A stretch of DNA of 9,251 nucleotides, taken from a virus. Taxonomy: Duplodnaviria; Heunggongvirae; Uroviricota; Caudoviricetes. Below the pieces are notes generated by a model. The model did not search any database. It saw nothing but the letters and a program-made list of their open reading frames with translations, and was not told the DNA's origin. The position numbers and the translations under genes are program-made. Shown here in pieces: positions 268 to 9,251 of this stretch. Where the stretch lies: the IMG/VR virus record IMGVR_UViG_2529293246_000005; one strand, 5' to 3'. Numbering within the stretch: position 1 is the first letter of the stretch; every line of letters starts with the position of its first letter.

Positions 268-300
268 AAGCCCTCGCGTTGAGGGCTTTACTGATTTTTT
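268..300 (+). terminator. Rho-independent terminator downstream of grxA (overlaps the 3' end of convergent ybjM)
   Basis: Stem AAGCCCTC (268-275), loop GCGTT, stem GAGGGCTT (281-288), then a T-rich tail ending in TTTTTT (295-300). Confidence 0.6.
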
Positions 301-665
301 CTGTGCTGTGGTTTAAACAAACTACTGATAAATAAGAAACACAGTGCCCCCAGCGCACACCAGAACACCGCGCTTAGTAACCATGCCAGCTCTTGCCAGA
401 ATGAGCGCGTCGGTGAAAAAAACAGCCGCATAATGAGCATCGAACAGGGTGCCGCCAGCATTGCGCCAAACAGAGGTTTCAGGACTTCTCTACGCTGTGA
501 AAAGAAGCTGGCCACTGCTCCAGGAAGAATGAAAAATAGCAAGCCGATTTCAGGATGCCCGGCAGCCCGAAAAGCGCCTTTCATGTGCGTCGCCAGAAAA
601 AGGCACACCACAATGAAGAGGACAAAACAGCAGATTGCCCCCGCCCAACGTTGTTTATGTTTCAC
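288..665 (-). CDS. ybjM: Inner membrane protein YbjM (DUF-type small multi-pass membrane protein)
   Basis: 125-aa strongly hydrophobic ORF convergent with grxA, as in the E. coli grxA-ybjM-ybjL neighbourhood; strong SD AGGAGG 5 nt upstream of a GTG start at 663-665 (minus strand). Confidence 0.8.
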   Translation of the reverse strand: MKHKQRWAGAICCFVLFIVVCLFLATHMKGAFRAAGHPEIGLLFFILPGAVASFFSQRREVLKPLFGAMLAAPCSMLIMRLFFSPTRSFWQELAWLLSAVFWCALGALCFLFISSLFKPQHRKNQ

Positions 666-2732: not shown

Positions 2733-2779
2733 CCCATCAACCCCGCCATTTCGGTTCAAGGTTGATGGGTTTTTTGTTG
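2733..2779 (+). terminator. Rho-independent terminator downstream of ybjL
   Basis: Perfect 10-bp stem CCCATCAACC (2733-2742) / GGTTGATGGG (2760-2769) with a 17-nt loop, followed by TTTTTTGTTG (2770-2779). Confidence 0.55.
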
Positions 2780-2855
2780 TCTGAAATTTATGCCGTTTAA
2801 AATCATGACGTTAGAATCACTGTTTTTTAACGATGGCGACAAAATGGCGGCAGCG

Positions 2856-3074
2856 TCAAAGAGAGAGCGCCACCTGTCCTGATTTCATTGGATGCGGCTG
2901 AACCGGATTTGACTCTTTTGGCGTTGCAATCGAACGAACAAAAGTTTCATGGGTTACAAAAGTATGGCTGCAGTTAATATTCTGGCACTGGTTGTAACGC
3001 TCTTTGGTCAATGAAGATACCTGAAAACTGCTGCGAGTATGGGCGGCACTTCCACACAGTGGGCAAATCATCAT
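2856..3074 (-). CDS. ogr: Ogr/Delta-family zinc-finger late-gene transcriptional activator (phage 186 B / P2 Ogr homologue)
   Basis: Translation MMICPLCGSAAHTRSS...KERYNQCQNINCSHTF has the C-x2-C...C-x4-C zinc-finger spacing and resembles P2 Ogr. Position directly after gpD matches P2/186 order. Start chosen at ATG 3072-3074, with a GGGAGA SD upstream on the minus strand; the ORF track's longer 83-aa start is probably an extension. Confidence 0.85.
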   Translation of the reverse strand: MMICPLCGSAAHTRSSFQVSSLTKERYNQCQNINCSHTFVTHETFVRSIATPKESNPVQPHPMKSGQVALSL

Positions 3075-3164
3075 TTTTCGAGTTCTCCCCATTTTTGCTA
3101 AATTCACAATAATGATACCGCATTATTCCATTTTGCAAACTTAAAAGTTCTCCATTGCGAAGAA

Positions 3165-4265
3165 TCATTCCATTTCGAAATCATCAATCCTCACTTCAAG
3201 CTCCAGACTGGTCGTAAAACCGTTATCCGGGCTGACGGTATGCGTCAGAGTCGTAATGGTCCATTCCGCATCATCTATCGGCTGTTTAAAACCACTGACC
3301 TTCACAGGCATTTCCGTGTAGAGATCTGCCCGCCCTTCTGCCAGTTGTAGCGAAAATGACGCAACGCCGCGTTGCAGGCGTTCCCACTGCATTTTCGCCG
3401 CTCGTTCGGCGTTGCTCCGGTTGGCATAAGTGCGATTAAGTACCAGCACGTTTTCATCCGTACCCACCAGGTAATCGCCCTGCTTCGCTTCCGGCTCTTT
3501 CTTCTGCTTCTTAGTTCTGCGCTTACGCTTCACCGTGGTGCTTTCTTTCTTCGCAGGTTCGCGGGTATGCAACCAGCTGGCAATTACGCCCGTGTAGGCT
3601 CCGCGATCTGCCAGGGTAAATCGGTGACTGTCGCCGTCCTTGCGTGTGATAGTGATCACTGGCAGAGGTTTACCAGTGGCGCTTTTGCCCTGCCCCTGCC
3701 GGATGAATAACAGATTGCCATTTTTCACCGACGCGATGGCACCGTACTGTCGCGCCAGCCGCATCAGAAAACTGCCGTCACTCTCATTAGTCTGGTCTAT
3801 ATGCTCCACGGGCTTATCCGACAGGTCTTTACCCAGTGCCATCTTCAGCTTGTGCCGCGCGGCTATTTCCTTCACCACTTCCCCGACGGTGGTCTTATGC
3901 CACGATTTTTCACGGCGGGTATTCAGCGTTTCCCGAAAATCAGCACTTCGCGCCCGGATAGTCAGGCGGTCCGGTGCGCCAGTGTGTTCAATCTCGTCCA
4001 CCGTGAATGCCCCTTTCGGGAAAAGCGGCTGCCCCTTCCAGCCCAGCGCCAGCGTAATAACCGCACCACGGCGCGGCAGCACGATTTTTCCGTCAGCGTC
4101 ATCCAGCTCCAGATCAAGCTGGTCCGCTTCAAAGCCCCGGTTGTCCGTCAGCGTCAGACTCATCAGGCGGTTATCCAGCACAGTGGTGATATCCCTGCCC
4201 TCAATACTGATGCTGAATGCGGGAGTTTTGTTGCCTTTGTTAAGCAGTTCAGAGCTGAAATTCAC
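3165..4265 (-). CDS. D: Phage tail protein D (P2 gpD-like late control/tail protein)
   Basis: 366-aa ORF; translation resembles P2 gpD-family proteins; lies between gpU and ogr as in P2/186; 4-bp ATGA overlap with the upstream gpU. Confidence 0.88.
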   Translation of the reverse strand: MNFSSELLNKGNKTPAFSISIEGRDITTVLDNRLMSLTLTDNRGFEADQLDLELDDADGKIVLPRRGAVITLALGWKGQPLFPKGAFTVDEIEHTGAPDRLTIRARSADFRETLNTRREKSWHKTTVGEVVKEIAARHKLKMALGKDLSDKPVEHIDQTNESDGSFLMRLARQYGAIASVKNGNLLFIRQGQGKSATGKPLPVITITRKDGDSHRFTLADRGAYTGVIASWLHTREPAKKESTTVKRKRRTKKQKKEPEAKQGDYLVGTDENVLVLNRTYANRSNAERAAKMQWERLQRGVASFSLQLAEGRADLYTEMPVKVSGFKQPIDDAEWTITTLTHTVSPDNGFTTSLELEVRIDDFEME

Positions 4266-4747
4266 GACAGCAGCCCTCCCACCGTTTTACTGATATCGCT
4301 TAAGGCAGACGTTGCCGTATCCTGCAGATTATTCAGTTGCGCACTGAGATCACCGAACATATCGGACAGGGATTCATCCACTCGTTTGAGCGACAGGGTG
4401 AACTCAATCCGGCGCGGCATACCGTCGCGGAAAAACTCCGTTTTAGTCTGATTCAGTCCCTCAATCACATACATGCCGTAAATCGTGCCGCTGCCTTCAA
4501 TCAGGGGCCATGCTTTCCCCTGTTCTGCCATCTGCTCCAGTGCCAGCAACGACAGCCTGCCGCCTGTTATCTCCGGCATAAGAACACCGGAAAGCGTCAG
4601 CATGTCGTTGTCCGGTCCCAGAAACTGCGTGGACGGACGACGATTTACCCGGCTGTTAGCCACATGTCGCCAGCTGCGCTGATACTGCAGTTCCTGATAC
4701 GGCACGGTGCGCAGCATAAACACGTACAATCCCAGCACCATCATCAT
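4262..4747 (-). CDS. U: Phage tail protein U (P2 gpU-like)
   Basis: 161-aa ORF starting [10 protein letters not shown]..., resembling P2 gpU; translationally coupled (ATGA overlap) to the upstream tape-measure remnant and to the downstream D. Confidence 0.85.
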   Translation of the reverse strand: MMMVLGLYVFMLRTVPYQELQYQRSWRHVANSRVNRRPSTQFLGPDNDMLTLSGVLMPEITGGRLSLLALEQMAEQGKAWPLIEGSGTIYGMYVIEGLNQTKTEFFRDGMPRRIEFTLSLKRVDESLSDMFGDLSAQLNNLQDTATSALSDISKTVGGLLS

Positions 4748-6144
4748 GCGTCGTATCCCCCCTGATCGCTGTAGTTACTCCTGGCTTTTGCCTTCAGCCT
4801 GCGTTCACGTTCATCAAGCTGGCGGGCCACCTCCCGCGCAATATCCTGCGCACTTTGTCCTGGCTGTGTCTGGATGATGATCTGCGTCGGTGCTTCAATC
4901 CGGTAAATGGGCGGCACAGTAGCTGCACGACTCACCATCGCTTCACCGCCTTTTGCGGGAAGCGCCAAAGGATGCAACGGTGGAAGCTCTGCTGGCGCGG
5001 CAGCAACACCCATCATTCCGGCGACAACGGCAGCCAGTGCAGCTGTATTTCTCCGGCTGGTCACATTTGCCGGGCCGTTAACAATTTCCGGCCCGTTTTC
5101 ACCGACGATGCCAAACTGCCCGCGCGGGATATACCCGCCGCTGTCATACATCCCCGCAAAGCCATATCCCCATGATGGAAAACCACCCGATGGCATCATC
5201 ACTTTACCGTCTGCATTCACCGTCGCAGGTTGCTGACGCGTCACGCTTTCCGGCAGTTTTGCCTTTGCGGCCTCTTTACTGACAATGCCGAGCTTCTCCA
5301 GCAACCAGGAAACGCCGGATTTCAGGGAGTCCAGCGGATGCATGACCATATTCAGCCCTTCCGCCAGTGCCTCCCCGAATCGCCGCCCCATTGCCGCTGC
5401 GCTCTGCAGTTCGGCAGAGGTCGACTTAACGGGCGTCAGCAGATCAGTAAACCAGCCCCACAGCGCCTGCACTTTGTCGCCAATCCACTGGAACACGGGC
5501 TTAAGCGGTTCGAACGCTGCACTGATGGGACCTGCCGCCGCTTTGAATCCTTCCACCACGCCACCGAGAAATGCGGTGATGGGTTGCCAGTATTTCCAGA
5601 CAACCAGCGCCACGCCCGCCAGTGCAGTAACCACAAGACCTATCGGACTGAGCAGAGCACCTAACAGACCAGATATGGCATACAGGGCAACGCGCAGCAT
5701 CGCCAGTGGACCAGATGCCAGTACTCGCAGCACCGTGCCTGCGGCGGCCAGTCCACCGCGCAGTACCGCCAGAGGATTCATAAACATCACAGCAACAGCA
5801 CGTAAACCGGATACCGCACCTGCTGCAACACGTCCGATCTCTGCAGTTGCGCTCATGACGTAATGCGGCAGTTTCTCTTTTGCAACCTCATTAATCGGTA
5901 CACATGGCAGGCAGTGAATCTGTGCCAGAAAACCATCTACCAGCGTTGAATCTTCAGTCAGATCGGTAAGCAGCCAGATTTCTGGTGCGGTTAATAAATG
6001 AGGCTGAGCTGGGTTCAGCTTGTTCCGCAGAATCTGCACATTCATGCCTGCACGTTCTGCCAGTTGCACCAGATTGTGGCGCAGTGCAAATGCACGACAG
6101 GCTTCATCAAAATGTGGATGTTTGGAAACTTGGTAATCAAACAT
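4744..6144 (-). CDS. Chimeric ORF: phage 186 CII-like N-terminus (approx. first 100-115 aa) fused in frame to a tail tape-measure (gpT-like) C-terminal region; deletion scar, likely non-functional as either protein
   Basis: N-terminus [24 protein letters not shown]...[24 protein letters not shown] matches my recollection of the 186 CII (Phage_CII family) N-terminal domain. The remainder is Gly/Ala-rich with hydrophobic segments and ends in a basic tail ([21 protein letters not shown]), sitting immediately upstream of U and D where gpT belongs. Start set at ATG 6142-6144; the ORF track uses an upstream TTG. Confidence 0.72.
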
Positions 6145-6176
6145 GGTCAATGCCTCTGATGTATTTCAGAATCGAA

Positions 6177-6398
6177 CTAATTAAGGTTTAGATTGCATTC
6201 TGAAAGCGCATCAACGGTCATGGCTGCTATGTTGATCATCACTTTTTCGCGTTTTTTATCTTTGCGCAAACGGTGACGGATAAGGCGTCCATCAGCCAAC
6301 ATGTCATTGATGGTATCGATGGACAGTCCTGTCAGCTCGCTATAGCGTTCAATAGTCACATGAGGCGTGGTAAGAGTGATTGAAATGTTAGGTCTCAT
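6177..6398 (-). CDS. apl: Apl/Cox-like small DNA-binding protein (excisionase / lytic-switch repressor-type)
   Basis: 73-aa ORF directly upstream of the cII-like gene and divergent from cI, the 186 apl position. Translation ([35 protein letters not shown]) has an HTH-like segment resembling Apl/Cox-family proteins. GAGGA SD about 10 nt upstream. Confidence 0.65.
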
Positions 6399-6523
6399 GA
6401 TGCAACATTCCTCGTTTAATGATGATTAATCAGGACGAATACGGATCGTTTGTATTTTGTGAACACCATAAACATACGATCGCACTATGAAATCGTCAAG
6501 ATAAAAGTTCACTTGGAGTGACC
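6399..6523. promoter_or_regulatory. Immunity switch region between divergent apl and cI (predicted lytic and lysogenic promoters and operator sites)
   Basis: 125-bp AT-rich divergent intergenic region. It contains a 10-bp inverted repeat with one mismatch, GATCGTTTGT (6444-6453) / ACATACGATC (6472-6481), and a TTAAT-gatg-ATTAA palindrome-like element (6416-6429). Confidence 0.5.
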
Positions 6524-7093
6524 ATGAATTTGGAGAAAGGCGGACGAGGCGCTATAGAGCGCATGGTAGAAGCTTATGGATTCAAAACTCGACAGGCGTT
6601 GTGCGATCATTTAGGAATCTCTAAAAGTACACTCGCTACACGCTACATGCGTGACTCATTCCCAGCAGAATGGGTAATCCAGTGCGCCCTTGAAACGGGC
6701 ACCTCGCTTAATTGGCTCACAACTGGACATGGTTCAAAGCAAACTTCAGGTAATACAAATACGATGGAAGTTGCTAAATATGTATTATCTGATGGTGCCT
6801 TGCGTGAAGACGGTTTTTATATTTTTGATAAGGAATTTCTACCCTCTACGTTTAAAAAACCTTTTGTCATCACAGATAACAATTCTGAATTTATTTGTGA
6901 TAAAGAATTTGATGATATACGTGATGGTAAATGGGTAATAAGTATTGATGGCGAAATAACAATCCGCGACATTACTCGTTTACCCGGTGGAAGAATCTTC
7001 GTTGAAGGTGGAAACAGATCCTTCGAGTGCAAGATAGAAGATGTTGAAATAATTGGAAAAATTATAAGTTTAACAATTAAGTACGTTAGGTAA
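6524..7093 (+). CDS. cI: Phage 186-type CI immunity repressor
   Basis: Translation (IERMVEAYGFKTRQALCDHLGISKSTLATRY...CALETGTSLNWLTTGHG...ITIRDITRLPGG...FECKIEDVEIIGKI) resembles 186 CI, with an N-terminal HTH and a C-terminal oligomerisation domain. Start chosen at ATG 6524 with GGAG 5 nt upstream; the ORF track starts at GTG 6518. Confidence 0.85.
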   Translation: MNLEKGGRGAIERMVEAYGFKTRQALCDHLGISKSTLATRYMRDSFPAEWVIQCALETGTSLNWLTTGHGSKQTSGNTNTMEVAKYVLSDGALREDGFYIFDKEFLPSTFKKPFVITDNNSEFICDKEFDDIRDGKWVISIDGEITIRDITRLPGGRIFVEGGNRSFECKIEDVEIIGKIISLTIKYVR

Positions 7094-7108: not shown

Positions 7109-7300
7109 ATGCTTGGTAAGGTATTTTTTGTGGTTTTATCATGTTCTTTGTTATTAAACCCACTAACTACCTATGCTAAAAATTATCCTTGTTCTGGGAA
7201 AAAGGGAGGTGTCTCTCACTGTACCTCCGATGGAAAGTTCGTTTGCAATGATGGAACTATTAGTAAATCAAAAAAAATCTGTACTAAAAACTCGCGATAA
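7109..7300 (+). CDS. Small secreted cysteine-rich protein of unknown function (putative moron)
   Basis: 63-aa ORF with a strong SD (GGGAGG, 5-nt spacer) only 15 nt after the cI stop. The N-terminus [23 protein letters not shown] looks like a type I signal peptide. The predicted mature part is about 40 aa, Lys-rich, with four Cys. Visibly AT-rich relative to flanking phage genes. Confidence 0.6.
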
Positions 7301-7486
7301 TTTTTGCTTTTATATCTGCGCCTAATATAACAATGAGCCGCAGGCTAACCGCAAAAGTCACATACTCACATAGCAAAAAATAGCCAACTTCATTATGGCT
7401 TCAGTGAGATGTATGGTCGCAAGATTTCATACATTGACACTGGTTATACATACAGTAAAAATGCTCTCTATTGGAGGGCATTTTTT

Positions 7487-8518
7487 ATGGCAGTACGAAA
7501 ACTCACCACAGGAAAATGGCTTTGCGAATGTTACCCCGCCGGACGTAGTGGGCGTCGTGTGCGTAAACAATTCGCCACCAAAGGCGAAGCACTGGCTTTT
7601 GAGCGTCACACGATGGAAGAAACCGAAGCAAAGCCCTGGCTGGGCGAATCAGTAGATCGTCGAACCCTGAAAGACGTGGTTGAGCTATGGTTCAAACTAC
7701 ATGGTAAATCTCTGACTGCTGGGCAGCATGTCTATGACAAATTGCTGCTGATGGTTGACGCTCTGGGCAATCCCCTTGCAACCGATCTCACATCTAAAAT
7801 GTTTGCCCATTATCGAGATAAACGACTGACAGGTGAGATCTACTTCAGCGAGAAATGGAAGAAAGGGGCCAGCCCGGTCACCATTAACCTGGAGCAAAGC
7901 TATCTAAGTAGTGTTTTTAGCGAACTATCCCGCCTGGGCGAATGGTCGTATCCAAACCCACTGGAGAACATGCGAAAATTCACCATCGCAGAAAAAGAGA
8001 TGGCATGGCTTACCCATGAGCAGATTGTTGAACTGCTGGATGATTGCAAACGTCAGGACCCAATTCTGGCACTGGTAGTCAAGATATGCTTAAGCACAGG
8101 CGCACGCTGGCGAGAAGCAATAAACCTTACCCGATCACAGGTGACCAAATACCGAATTACCTTTGTAAGAACGAAGGGGAAGAAAAACAGAAGCATCCCT
8201 ATCAGTAAAGAGCTTTATGAAGAGATCATGGCGCTTGATGGGTTCAATTTCTTCACAGACTGCTATTTTCAATTTTTATCCGTGATGGAAAAAACGTCTA
8301 TCGTGCTCCCTCGCGGTCAACTTACACACGTTCTGCGTCATACGTTTGCGGCGCATTTCATGATGTCGGGTGGAAACATCCTTGCTTTGCAAAAAATCCT
8401 CGGACATCACGACATTAAAATGACTATGCGTTATGCTCATCTATCACCTGATCACTTAGAGACAGCTCTTCGTTTCAATCCACTAGCAACTTTGGATGTT
8501 ACTAAATCAGATTCTTAA
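7487..8518 (+). CDS. int: Tyrosine site-specific integrase (P2/186 Int family)
   Basis: Translation from MAVRKLTTGKWLCECYPAGRSGRRVRKQF resembles P2 Int. Catalytic signature present: STGARWREA (Arg), HVLRHTFA (H-x-x-R), MRYAHL (Tyr nucleophile). Start at ATG 7487 with a GGAGGG SD; the ORF track's start at 7409 is an upstream extension. Confidence 0.9.
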   Translation: MAVRKLTTGKWLCECYPAGRSGRRVRKQFATKGEALAFERHTMEETEAKPWLGESVDRRTLKDVVELWFKLHGKSLTAGQHVYDKLLLMVDALGNPLATDLTSKMFAHYRDKRLTGEIYFSEKWKKGASPVTINLEQSYLSSVFSELSRLGEWSYPNPLENMRKFTIAEKEMAWLTHEQIVELLDDCKRQDPILALVVKICLSTGARWREAINLTRSQVTKYRITFVRTKGKKNRSIPISKELYEEIMALDGFNFFTDCYFQFLSVMEKTSIVLPRGQLTHVLRHTFAAHFMMSGGNILALQKILGHHDIKMTMRYAHLSPDHLETALRFNPLATLDVTKSDS

Positions 8519-8528
8519 AGGTTCAAGC

Positions 8529-9251
8529 ATGGTTAAGTTTTTGTTTCAATTCCCAATATTCGACTTCTCCTTAACATTTGATATTATCGAGACGTTAATC
8601 ACTCATAGCGAATCATCAATCGCTAAGGGCATAGCAGAATATAAAGACAAAGGACCTGAAGAATATATAATTGAAATATCTCCGGAAGATGGTGTATATC
8701 AGTCAATTGATCATTACATGGGACTCACCAGCTCATCGCTAGATCTCGATGAAATGTTTTTAGAATACTACCCAAGTATTATCCGCAGGTCAGTATTCTT
8801 AACTATATTCGGAATTTTTGAGCACGAAATAGAAAAATTCTGTAACAACTTTGCTAATAGACATCATTCTCCTATAAATGTTTCAGATCTCAAAGGAAGT
8901 GGATTTGAGAGGAGCCATCTATTTATCAAAAAAATGATAGGGATGAAGTCAACATCCCACTATTCGAATATCAAAAAAATAACAAAATTAAGAAACAGTT
9001 GTGCGCATAATGATGCAAAATACTTAGAAAACGATGGGCAAAATATTAAAAGCATTATTGAACTTATAGAAAAATATCCTGATTTTTTTAAAAAAGATGG
9101 AAAACAGGTCCTATTTATGGGGGGCTCGTTAAGCATGATCTTGAACTCATTCAAAGAGTATCTTTCTGATGTTGAAAGAGCCTTAGATGAATTCGAAAAA
9201 CAAAGCACTAGTGGCGACAAAGTGGCGGCAGCGGTTGGCATTACCCCGTAA
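8529..9251 (+). CDS. Hypothetical protein with an HEPN-like R-x4-H motif (candidate RNase toxin / abortive-infection-type cargo); function unverified
   Basis: 240-aa AT-rich ORF beginning 10 nt after the int stop on the same strand; AAGG SD-like element upstream of ATG 8529. Motif K-L-R-N-S-C-A-H at nt 8985-9008 (Arg codon 8991-8993, His codon 9006-9008). Sequence looks predominantly helical. I do not recognise it as any characterised protein. Confidence 0.55.
   Translation: MVKFLFQFPIFDFSLTFDIIETLITHSESSIAKGIAEYKDKGPEEYIIEISPEDGVYQSIDHYMGLTSSSLDLDEMFLEYYPSIIRRSVFLTIFGIFEHEIEKFCNNFANRHHSPINVSDLKGSGFERSHLFIKKMIGMKSTSHYSNIKKITKLRNSCAHNDAKYLENDGQNIKSIIELIEKYPDFFKKDGKQVLFMGGSLSMILNSFKEYLSDVERALDEFEKQSTSGDKVAAAVGITP

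Follow-up and report, generated by a model that had tools for sequence, protein, structure and literature searches.

HEPN ribonucleases (RNases) are metal-independent enzymes that form a composite active site from paired domains (PMC3710099). Across the superfamily an Rx4-6H motif closes helix 3, its arginine is usually followed by N, D or H, and a conserved acidic residue of helix 2, usually in the form Ex3[KR], is placed near the motif (PMC3710099). Here we describe a standalone HEPN-like gene at the end of a 9,251-nucleotide stretch of Caudoviricetes DNA (IMG/VR record IMGVR_UViG_2529293246_000005; the whole stretch is called the window below). Its open reading frame (ORF) directly follows the integrase gene (int) of a P2/186-like prophage remnant in the Escherichia coli chromosome; a preliminary description of the window had proposed it as anti-phage or toxin cargo.

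Proteins of this kind are already well known. HepS, a solo HEPN protein encoded by a prophage, is an abortive-infection system sufficient in itself: it senses a phage protein, cleaves tRNA without a partner and is non-toxic at rest (PMC13043305). HepS (Gifsy-1 'HEPN Solo', PDB 9oik) resides in a different slot of a lambdoid phage, whereas our ORF belongs to a P2-like one, and the profile of the ORF family does not match it even at E<=10. Its trigger (the siphovirus tail-tip protein J), tetrameric assembly and tRNA anticodon targets were demonstrated for HepS alone. The lactococcal AbiD-AbiF proteins (Abi_2, PF07751) are likewise standalone, as single-gene abortive-infection proteins, and bear an R-N-x-x-A-H-type motif near the C-terminus, but their N-terminal architecture differs. 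HepT toxins (HI0074, SO_3166, 7ae2, 8xdj) have about 130 residues, are always paired with an MNT antitoxin and share only 8-13% identity with the ORF protein; the latter has 240 residues, extra beta-hairpins, a long C-terminal helix and no MNT neighbour at any locus. Finally, PD-T4-2 is a two-gene system, whereas the ORF stands alone; only the C-terminal third of the protein aligns with RiboL-PSP-HEPN/PD-T4-2_B, its scored matches stay under the gathering cut-off and PADLOC returns no PD-T4-2 match.

The exact cluster is itself part of a published list. Table S10 of DefensePredictor (Science 2026, PMC13092281) comprises 1,041 predicted, uncharacterised defence clusters, one of them WP_032173749.1, with a mean log-odds of 10.42 against a stringent cutoff of 4. 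The nearest known protein given there is PD-T4-2_B (RiboL-PSP-HEPN; HHblits coverage 0.33, probability 78.4). WP_032173749.1 is the allele of a sister genome (L002) and differs from the ORF protein by one residue. In the tables of cloned and validated units of the same work the cluster is absent, both by accession and by signature peptide (PMC13092281). We aligned the family by hhalign with the validated E. coli GNAT-partner HEPN protein WP_014639476; 16 columns matched, at the motif only, and we claim no link.

The location has a precedent too. In a survey of P2 and P4 elements (NAR 2026, PMC13586616), the interval between int and the attachment site (att) is a minor, 'atypical' P2 defence hotspot that holds 3% of P2 systems.

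We propose that the ORF protein is an RNase which stays latent until another phage infects and then aborts that infection. This is the most likely mechanism and in our judgement a reasonably probable one, its RNase activity and its phenotype being extrapolated from the evidence set out below.

A solo gene directly behind the integrase

The features on which the argument rests are the following.

7487-8518, plus strand: int, P2/186-type tyrosine integrase, 343 aa, directly 5' of the HEPN-like ORF
8529..9251, plus strand: solo HEPN-like ORF, 240 aa and stop (RefSeq WP_000238244.1, 'hypothetical protein')
8784..8822, plus strand: another conserved block, part of long helix 73-111 (R86 invariant; R87-S88 and E98 conserved in at least 90%)
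8991..9008, plus strand: R155-N-S-C-A-H160, predicted active-site motif of a HEPN RNase, closing helix 145-161 at its C-terminal end

The ORF begins at ATG 8529 and stops at TAA 9249-9251, with AAGG 7 nt 5' of the ATG. RefSeq places the start at the same ATG in sister genomes. An alternative start at ATG 8496 (251 aa) was rejected because the start used by RefSeq, the spacing of AAGG and the N-termini of homologues all point to 8529. The coordinates agree with the preliminary description, which had the 240-aa ORF 10 nt past the int stop (8516-8518) and co-directional with cI, a small ORF and int.

The same description held the ORF to be much more AT-rich than its neighbours. This stands against int and the tail genes, whose G+C fractions are 0.465 and 0.54-0.56, respectively, compared with 0.346 in the ORF; it does not stand against cI (0.392) or the small ORF, orf63 (0.344). 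Low G+C thus sets the gene apart from int and the structural genes, not from every neighbour.

The absence of a partner gene, noted earlier up to the window end, extends beyond it: in sister genomes, int lies upstream of the ORF, and only ~75 nt separate its stop from the att core and host DNA. Rfam detects no RNA within or beside the ORF.

No promoter-like or terminator-like site was found between int and the ORF. Because of this and of the 10-nt gap, co-transcription with int is expected, and int is the likely transcription unit of the HEPN gene. The closest plus-strand promoter-like site upstream is at 7434-7462, and in L002 the att site past the ORF contains a terminator-like hairpin (13887-13908). 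In P2 and 186, the lysogenic promoter transcribes int together with the repressor. Since this arrangement would include the ORF, its product should be present in lysogens.

The motif is conserved in a large unnamed family

The R-N-S-C-A-H string reported at nt 8991-9008 was verified by hand and by script as codons 155-160. On its own such a motif would be weak evidence: when the ORF protein is shuffled, Rx4-6H arises in 45% of the shuffles, Rx4H in 18% and R[NQ]x3H in 1.1%. Its weight comes from conservation. We found 40 close clusters, all in Enterobacterales, and LRNxCxH and PSxxRRSxxLT are invariant in the 24 that were aligned. An exhaustive profile search (E<=0.001) expanded the family to 2086 representatives at 50% identity, ranging from Enterobacterales to Acidobacteriota, nearly all of them standalone proteins of 210-250 aa. 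Across 77 relatives with 20-49% identity to the query, R86, R155 and H160 are the only invariant residues; E28, P82, E98, C105 and N156 are conserved in at least 90%. The Rx4-6H motif is therefore conserved with a polar residue (N156) after its arginine, as is typical of the superfamily.

Curated resources recognize the protein only below their cut-offs. In Pfam, the single sequence gives RiboL-PSP-HEPN (PF18735) at 17.4 bits (E 0.0043, residues 141-188; gathering cut-off 28.4) and Abi_2 at 14.7 bits (E 0.038; gathering cut-off 25.6). The weak Abi_2 match sits exactly on the motif, pairing residues 133-162 with positions 153-180 of the 184 in the profile. Member-by-member Pfam scans yield repeated sub-threshold matches to seven HEPN-clan families. 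RiboL-PSP-HEPN is the most frequent of them, with 15 of 24 and 16 of 77 members (best E 1.1e-5), and Abi_2 matches only 9 of 24. HEPN_Cthe2314 (PF18730) has no match to the ORF protein at E<=10 and matches 3 of the 24 relatives (best E 0.063); UniRef gives that name to the relatives P0022 and P0227.

PADLOC-DB v2 holds no significant match, its best ones (HEC-01A, E 0.0047; Cas13a, 0.014; RTasHEPN, 0.023) all falling over the motif region. The NCBIfam scan gave no match, and in PHROGs the protein meets phrog_21382, of unknown function (E 2.9e-9). The family profile found nothing real among PDB sequences. Judged by these profile searches, no curated family includes the ORF protein, and sequence comparison reveals no relative of solved structure; the reluctance of the preliminary description to assign it to a named family was thus justified.

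A predicted HEPN fold

The AlphaFold2 model (pLDDT 85.7, pTM 0.81) comprises long helices at residues 14-41, 73-111, 145-161 and 200-227 and two small beta-hairpins. Its ends, 1-8 and 229-240, are disordered, with pLDDT below 50 for the latter. The long helices form a four-helix up-down bundle like that of solved HEPN domains. In the model, helix 145-161 ends at motif residues 155-160 and is followed by a loop, which corresponds to the helix-3 position of the superfamily; the motif had indeed been placed in a helix-rich part of the C-terminal half. E98, on helix 73-111, is a candidate for the helix-2 acidic residue, though not in the Ex3[KR] form.

The closest structural matches are HEPN proteins, foremost the HepT-type toxins of MNT-HEPN toxin-antitoxin systems. 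A structure search of BFVD returned only two uncharacterised phage proteins. Together with the invariant R155 and H160, N156 at 90% or more and the seven sub-threshold HEPN-clan families, these matches bear out the HEPN signature suggested earlier, and we regard membership of the HEPN superfamily as highly probable.

A HEPN fold could also serve to bind a nucleotide or a protein without RNA cleavage, or act as a sensor or adaptor for an unlinked effector. HEPN domains fused to nucleotidyltransferases act in binding (PMC3710099), about 110 residues of the ORF protein, including the two beta-hairpins, lie outside the minimal HEPN core, and relatives recur next to a DUF4238 gene (in a P4 satellite) and behind hsdR-YgjP. 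However, non-catalytic HEPN domains typically lose Rx4-6H (PMC3710099), whereas here R155 and H160 are invariant, and N156 nearly so, in 77 sequences. The pairings are not universal either, and the gene is alone in the P2 slot. We hold such a non-catalytic role for very improbable. The proposed RNase would be a standalone, metal-independent enzyme with R155, N156 and H160 as its predicted active site, helped by R86 and E98.

A cassette within the 3' end of int

Comparison of the window with L018, a sister prophage that occupies the same site but lacks cargo, defines two further features.

8338..8518, plus strand: diverged, low-G+C last ~60 codons of int and its stop, with the new ending DVTKSDS; left part of the exchanged module
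9210..9251, plus strand: ancestral int 3' end (SGDKVAAAVGITP and stop), today encoding the disordered C-terminus of the HEPN ORF product; delimits the cassette on its right

The L018 integrase has 350 aa and ends in ...ALRFNPLATLPSGDKVAAAVGITP. The int of the window matches it through ...NPLATL and then terminates as above, whereas the HEPN ORF ends in ...EKQSTSGDKVAAAVGITP. From these endings it follows that the final 13 codons of the ORF (9210-9248) are the original int tail, retained in frame, and did not come with the acquired gene; this fits the disordered C-terminus of the model. By the same comparison, the present stop of int (8516) arose through the insertion. The full ORF is present in 25 of 5426 complete E. 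coli genomes, its last ~42 nt in 1125 of them, where they are mostly annotated as the integrase end.

The left boundary lies within int. Relative to the cargo-free gene, mismatches rise from ~3% to ~17% from 8338 onward, almost all of them synonymous, and G+C drops from 0.52 to 0.41. The exchanged module therefore spans from ~8338 to 9210. Such a cassette was probably gained by homologous recombination, with the last ~50 int codons as the left arm and the int tail plus the attP arm as the right one. That the right arm was the int tail would be why the ORF ends in 13 former integrase residues.

L018 has nothing in the slot, L019 has an 89-aa ORF there, and L020 has a SocA/Panacea antitoxin-domain gene with a 251-aa gene. 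In both L019 and L020, int diverges directly after NPLAT[L/M] and the tail DNA is kept downstream. In L020 (NZ_CP182387.1, 1275-2503) the SocA/Panacea gene comes first and the 251-aa gene, which has no family match, second; the pair resembles a PanA-type toxin-antitoxin module with an undescribed toxin.

Two suggestions of the preliminary description gain substance here. Its horizontally acquired cargo is now a cassette with defined breakpoints and a narrow distribution in E. coli, and its variable, defence-carrying locus corresponds to a slot with alternative cargos in a published minor P2 hotspot. The locus has the traits of an int-att hotspot: an att core ~75 nt downstream, four alternative slot states and two att sites. 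The likeness to the hotspot papers (Rousset 2022, PMC9122126; PMC13586616) lies in the int-att position and in cargo that varies between close prophages. In the passages considered, the slot is placed only 'between integrase and att', whereas in our case the cargo sits inside the 3' end of int, the int ending is replaced and the old tail lies downstream.

Attachment sites and prophage mobility

The att region contributes three features.

2765-2791, plus strand: att core ATGGGTTTTTTGTTGTCTGAAATTTAT, ogr-proximal end; common to L002 13902-13928; overlaps the rybB terminator
2834..2855, plus strand: 22-nt element again, flanked by the att core and ogr
9212..9233, plus strand: 22-nt element TGGCGACAAAGTGGCGGCAGCG, in the last codons of the HEPN ORF; candidate Int arm-type site

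The int-proximal copy of the att core lies ~75 nt past the window end. Because the core overlaps the rybB terminator, we conclude that this phage type integrates into the 3' end of rybB; among the papers listed in our literature search, none mentions both rybB and a P2-like att site. On the int-proximal side, the phage brings a replacement terminator-like hairpin, the one given above for L002 (13887-13908).

The 22-nt direct repeat, TGGCGACAAA[A/G]TGGCGGCAGCG, occurs in two copies (at most one mismatch; 0 expected) that flank the att core. It persists as non-coding DNA behind the shorter HEPN alleles of L008 and L012. The two elements are probably Int arm-type binding sites. A putative Int arm site in the int tail would account both for the entry of cargo on its upstream side and for the tail being retained in every case.

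In L002, a tandem direct repeat, CTAACTTATTGTTTT x2 (13851-13883), also lies past the ORF stop and before the att core; it is conserved in the copies from E. coli, Enterobacter, Salmonella, Serratia and Rouxiella. This repeat probably serves the att arm as a further site of protein binding.

The same int and ORF are found in intact prophages at two chromosomal sites, fhuE near ptsG (L001) and the interval between rybB/ybjL and rcdA (L002). The ORF thus travels with the phage. We considered a gene lying outside the prophage and rejected it, as the ORF accompanies the phage to the second att site and sits inside the att arm.

In L001 (NZ_CP019944.1, 3479-5056 and 13926-14825) the integrase is identical and the secondary site lies inside fhuE, so that the TonB-dependent receptor is truncated. 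That prophage also encodes a 525-aa LA2681-family HEPN protein between replication gene A and the portal gene, a classical hotspot.

Relatives and their genomic contexts

The related-locus search, which used the closer alignment, gave 9 loci. Alleles 45-75% identical to the ORF occupy the same int-att slot in Serratia marcescens, Salmonella, Rouxiella and Enterobacter. The Salmonella integrase (L012) is frameshifted and Rouxiella (L013) keeps only the last 59 int codons, but the HEPN genes are intact in both. Between these two copies dN/dS is 0.11, and it is 0.06-0.18 for the other measurable pairs: the HEPN gene is under purifying selection. No match was obtained by tblastn among 50,697 phage records, hence no sequenced phage isolate has the ORF.

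Several copies lie in defence-rich surroundings. The Serratia inhibens copy adjoins Dsr1 and an LA2681-HEPN protein. In a metagenome-assembled genome, a 30%-identical copy stands amid genes for ThsB-TIR, AbiU2-HEPN, an MmeI-type enzyme, UvrD and OLD-TOPRIM. KAP-NTPase PDC-S20 and DUF3800 PDC-M04A are further neighbours of homologues, and the Terriglobales copy is without telling ones.

At two loci (L016 1055-6645; L023 63-7699) a type I restriction-modification (R-M) operon contains hsdR, a YgjP-like metallopeptidase gene and, 3' of both, a homologue. In Aliivibrio fischeri the homologue starts 12 nt past the YgjP-like gene; in an Alteromonadaceae genome, a 239-aa gene is in between. The arrangement is reminiscent of the EcoprrI locus with its PrrC.

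In a Raoultella P4-like satellite (L006 4869-6687; L007 263-2081), the homologue (41% identity) lies 125 nt behind a co-directional DUF4238 gene, beside the primase and not in the main psu-int hotspot. The two could form a two-gene unit.

By tblastn, 113 plasmids carry relatives at 25-51% identity, including those of Klebsiella, Salmonella, Vibrio and Leptospira. Plasmid copies of Pantoea and Enterobacter (L003 6001-9688; L004; L010) lie 1-3 kb from the leading-region genes psiB, ssb and DUF905. They are on the strand opposite to psiB and ssb, and an insertion sequence (IS) element is adjacent.

The protein might instead serve the mobile element itself, as a counter-defence or establishment factor or as an RNA processor that adjusts the expression of int or of lysogeny. 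Proximity to leading-region genes on plasmids speaks for this, as does the embedding of the gene in the int transcription unit and its overlap with the candidate Int arm site. The opposite strand and the IS element next to the plasmid copies weaken the first point, however, and most prophages with this integrase lack the gene, which is thus dispensable for integration and lysogeny. Homologues also reside in chromosomal R-M operons and defence islands without any integrase, and in the P2/P4 survey only 28 P2 elements, and no P4 element, have anti-defence systems (PMC13586616). Altogether, a role of this kind appears improbable.

A second possibility is a toxin of an addiction module that stabilizes the prophage or plasmid, with element retention as the benefit and an unrecognized antitoxin such as a small RNA or an inhibitory stretch of the protein itself. 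The HepT-type structural matches fit this, and so do the 113 plasmids, the Panacea-type pair found in the same slot of L020 and the survival of the intact gene in decayed prophages. Yet no neighbour is conserved in any context examined and flanking genes differ at every locus. The slot has no room for an antitoxin gene, with 10 nt upstream and ~75 nt to the att core. Neither an adjacent MNT protein nor an Rfam RNA in or beside the ORF was detected, and no homologue examined has an MNT nucleotidyltransferase gene next to it. As HepS shows, moreover, a solo HEPN protein need not be harmful when it lacks a partner (PMC13043305). We consider an addiction toxin unlikely. Since no neighbour is common to all contexts, the protein acts alone or with varying partners.

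The prophage remnant and the rest of the window

The remaining features of the window are listed in order.

1-258: grxA, E. coli chromosome
288-665, minus strand: ybjM, E. coli chromosome
935-2620: ybjL, E. coli chromosome
2700-2778: small RNA gene rybB (Rfam RF00110, 105 bits)
2856-3107, minus strand: ogr, P2/186-like prophage remnant
3165-4265, minus strand: gpD, prophage remnant
4262-4747, minus strand: gpU, prophage remnant
4744-6150, minus strand: chimeric 468-aa ORF, CII regulator N-terminus and tape-measure C-terminal part
6177-6398, minus strand: apl/cox-like gene
6518-7093, plus strand: cI
7109-7300, plus strand: orf63, 63-aa Cys-rich protein with a signal-peptide-like N-terminus

The remnant measures ~6.5 kb. 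In the chimeric ORF, residues 11-112 correspond to a CII regulator (Pfam Phage_CP76) and the remainder to the C-terminal part of a tape-measure protein. It is the trace of a single large deletion, by which the replication, lysis, head and most tail genes were lost. The arm from cI through int to the HEPN ORF is intact.

The interval between cI and int is a second variable slot (window 7109-7300; L002 11027-11971; L008 3966-4835; L009 3458-4909). In the window it is filled by orf63; elsewhere it contains a 314-aa membrane-like protein, a 289-aa protein with a weak TIR-effector match or a KAP-NTPase (PADLOC PDC-S20, E 1e-85). We rejected orf63 as a partner of the HEPN gene, as it is also found in prophages without that gene.

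Discussion

We now propose a course of events for this one-gene cassette, which occupies the int-att slot of a P2/186-like prophage integrating at the 3' end of rybB. Produced in lysogens together with int, the protein would be kept latent, much like the solo proteins HepS, AbiD and AbiF; latency is probable because no antitoxin-like partner accompanies it. Infection by an unrelated phage would then activate it. Paired HEPN domains would cut tRNA, mRNA or rRNA, and the infection would be aborted. Within this scheme RNase activity, oligomerization, the resting state, the trigger, the shared transcript with int and the protective phenotype are all predictions, as is any role of the HEPN ORF in defence or as a toxin.

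More tentatively, the ORF could be the founding member of an unnamed, widespread family of HEPN RNases that combine sensor and effector and have a phage trigger of their own. The family would spread via a cassette slot in the coding 3' end of int, with the last int codons and the Int arm site as recombination arms. Behind type I R-M operons, its members could provide a PrrC-like back-up for when restriction is disabled. We regard this extended scenario as possible rather than probable.

The anatomy of the cassette explains how cargo can be carried between int and att without breaking recombination, as the retained tail probably holds an Int arm site. It also provides a signature by which the slot can be mined: int up to ...NPLAT[L/M], then the cargo, then AGTGGCGACAAAGTGGCGGCAGCGG.

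The ORF is the E. coli representative of a large unnamed family of solo HEPN proteins. If it is an active abortive-infection RNase, the anti-phage repertoire gains a large HEPN family that is invisible to Pfam, NCBIfam and PADLOC. E. coli would then offer a second tractable solo HEPN protein to set beside HepS, in which the silence of a partner-less nuclease and the switch that activates it could be studied.
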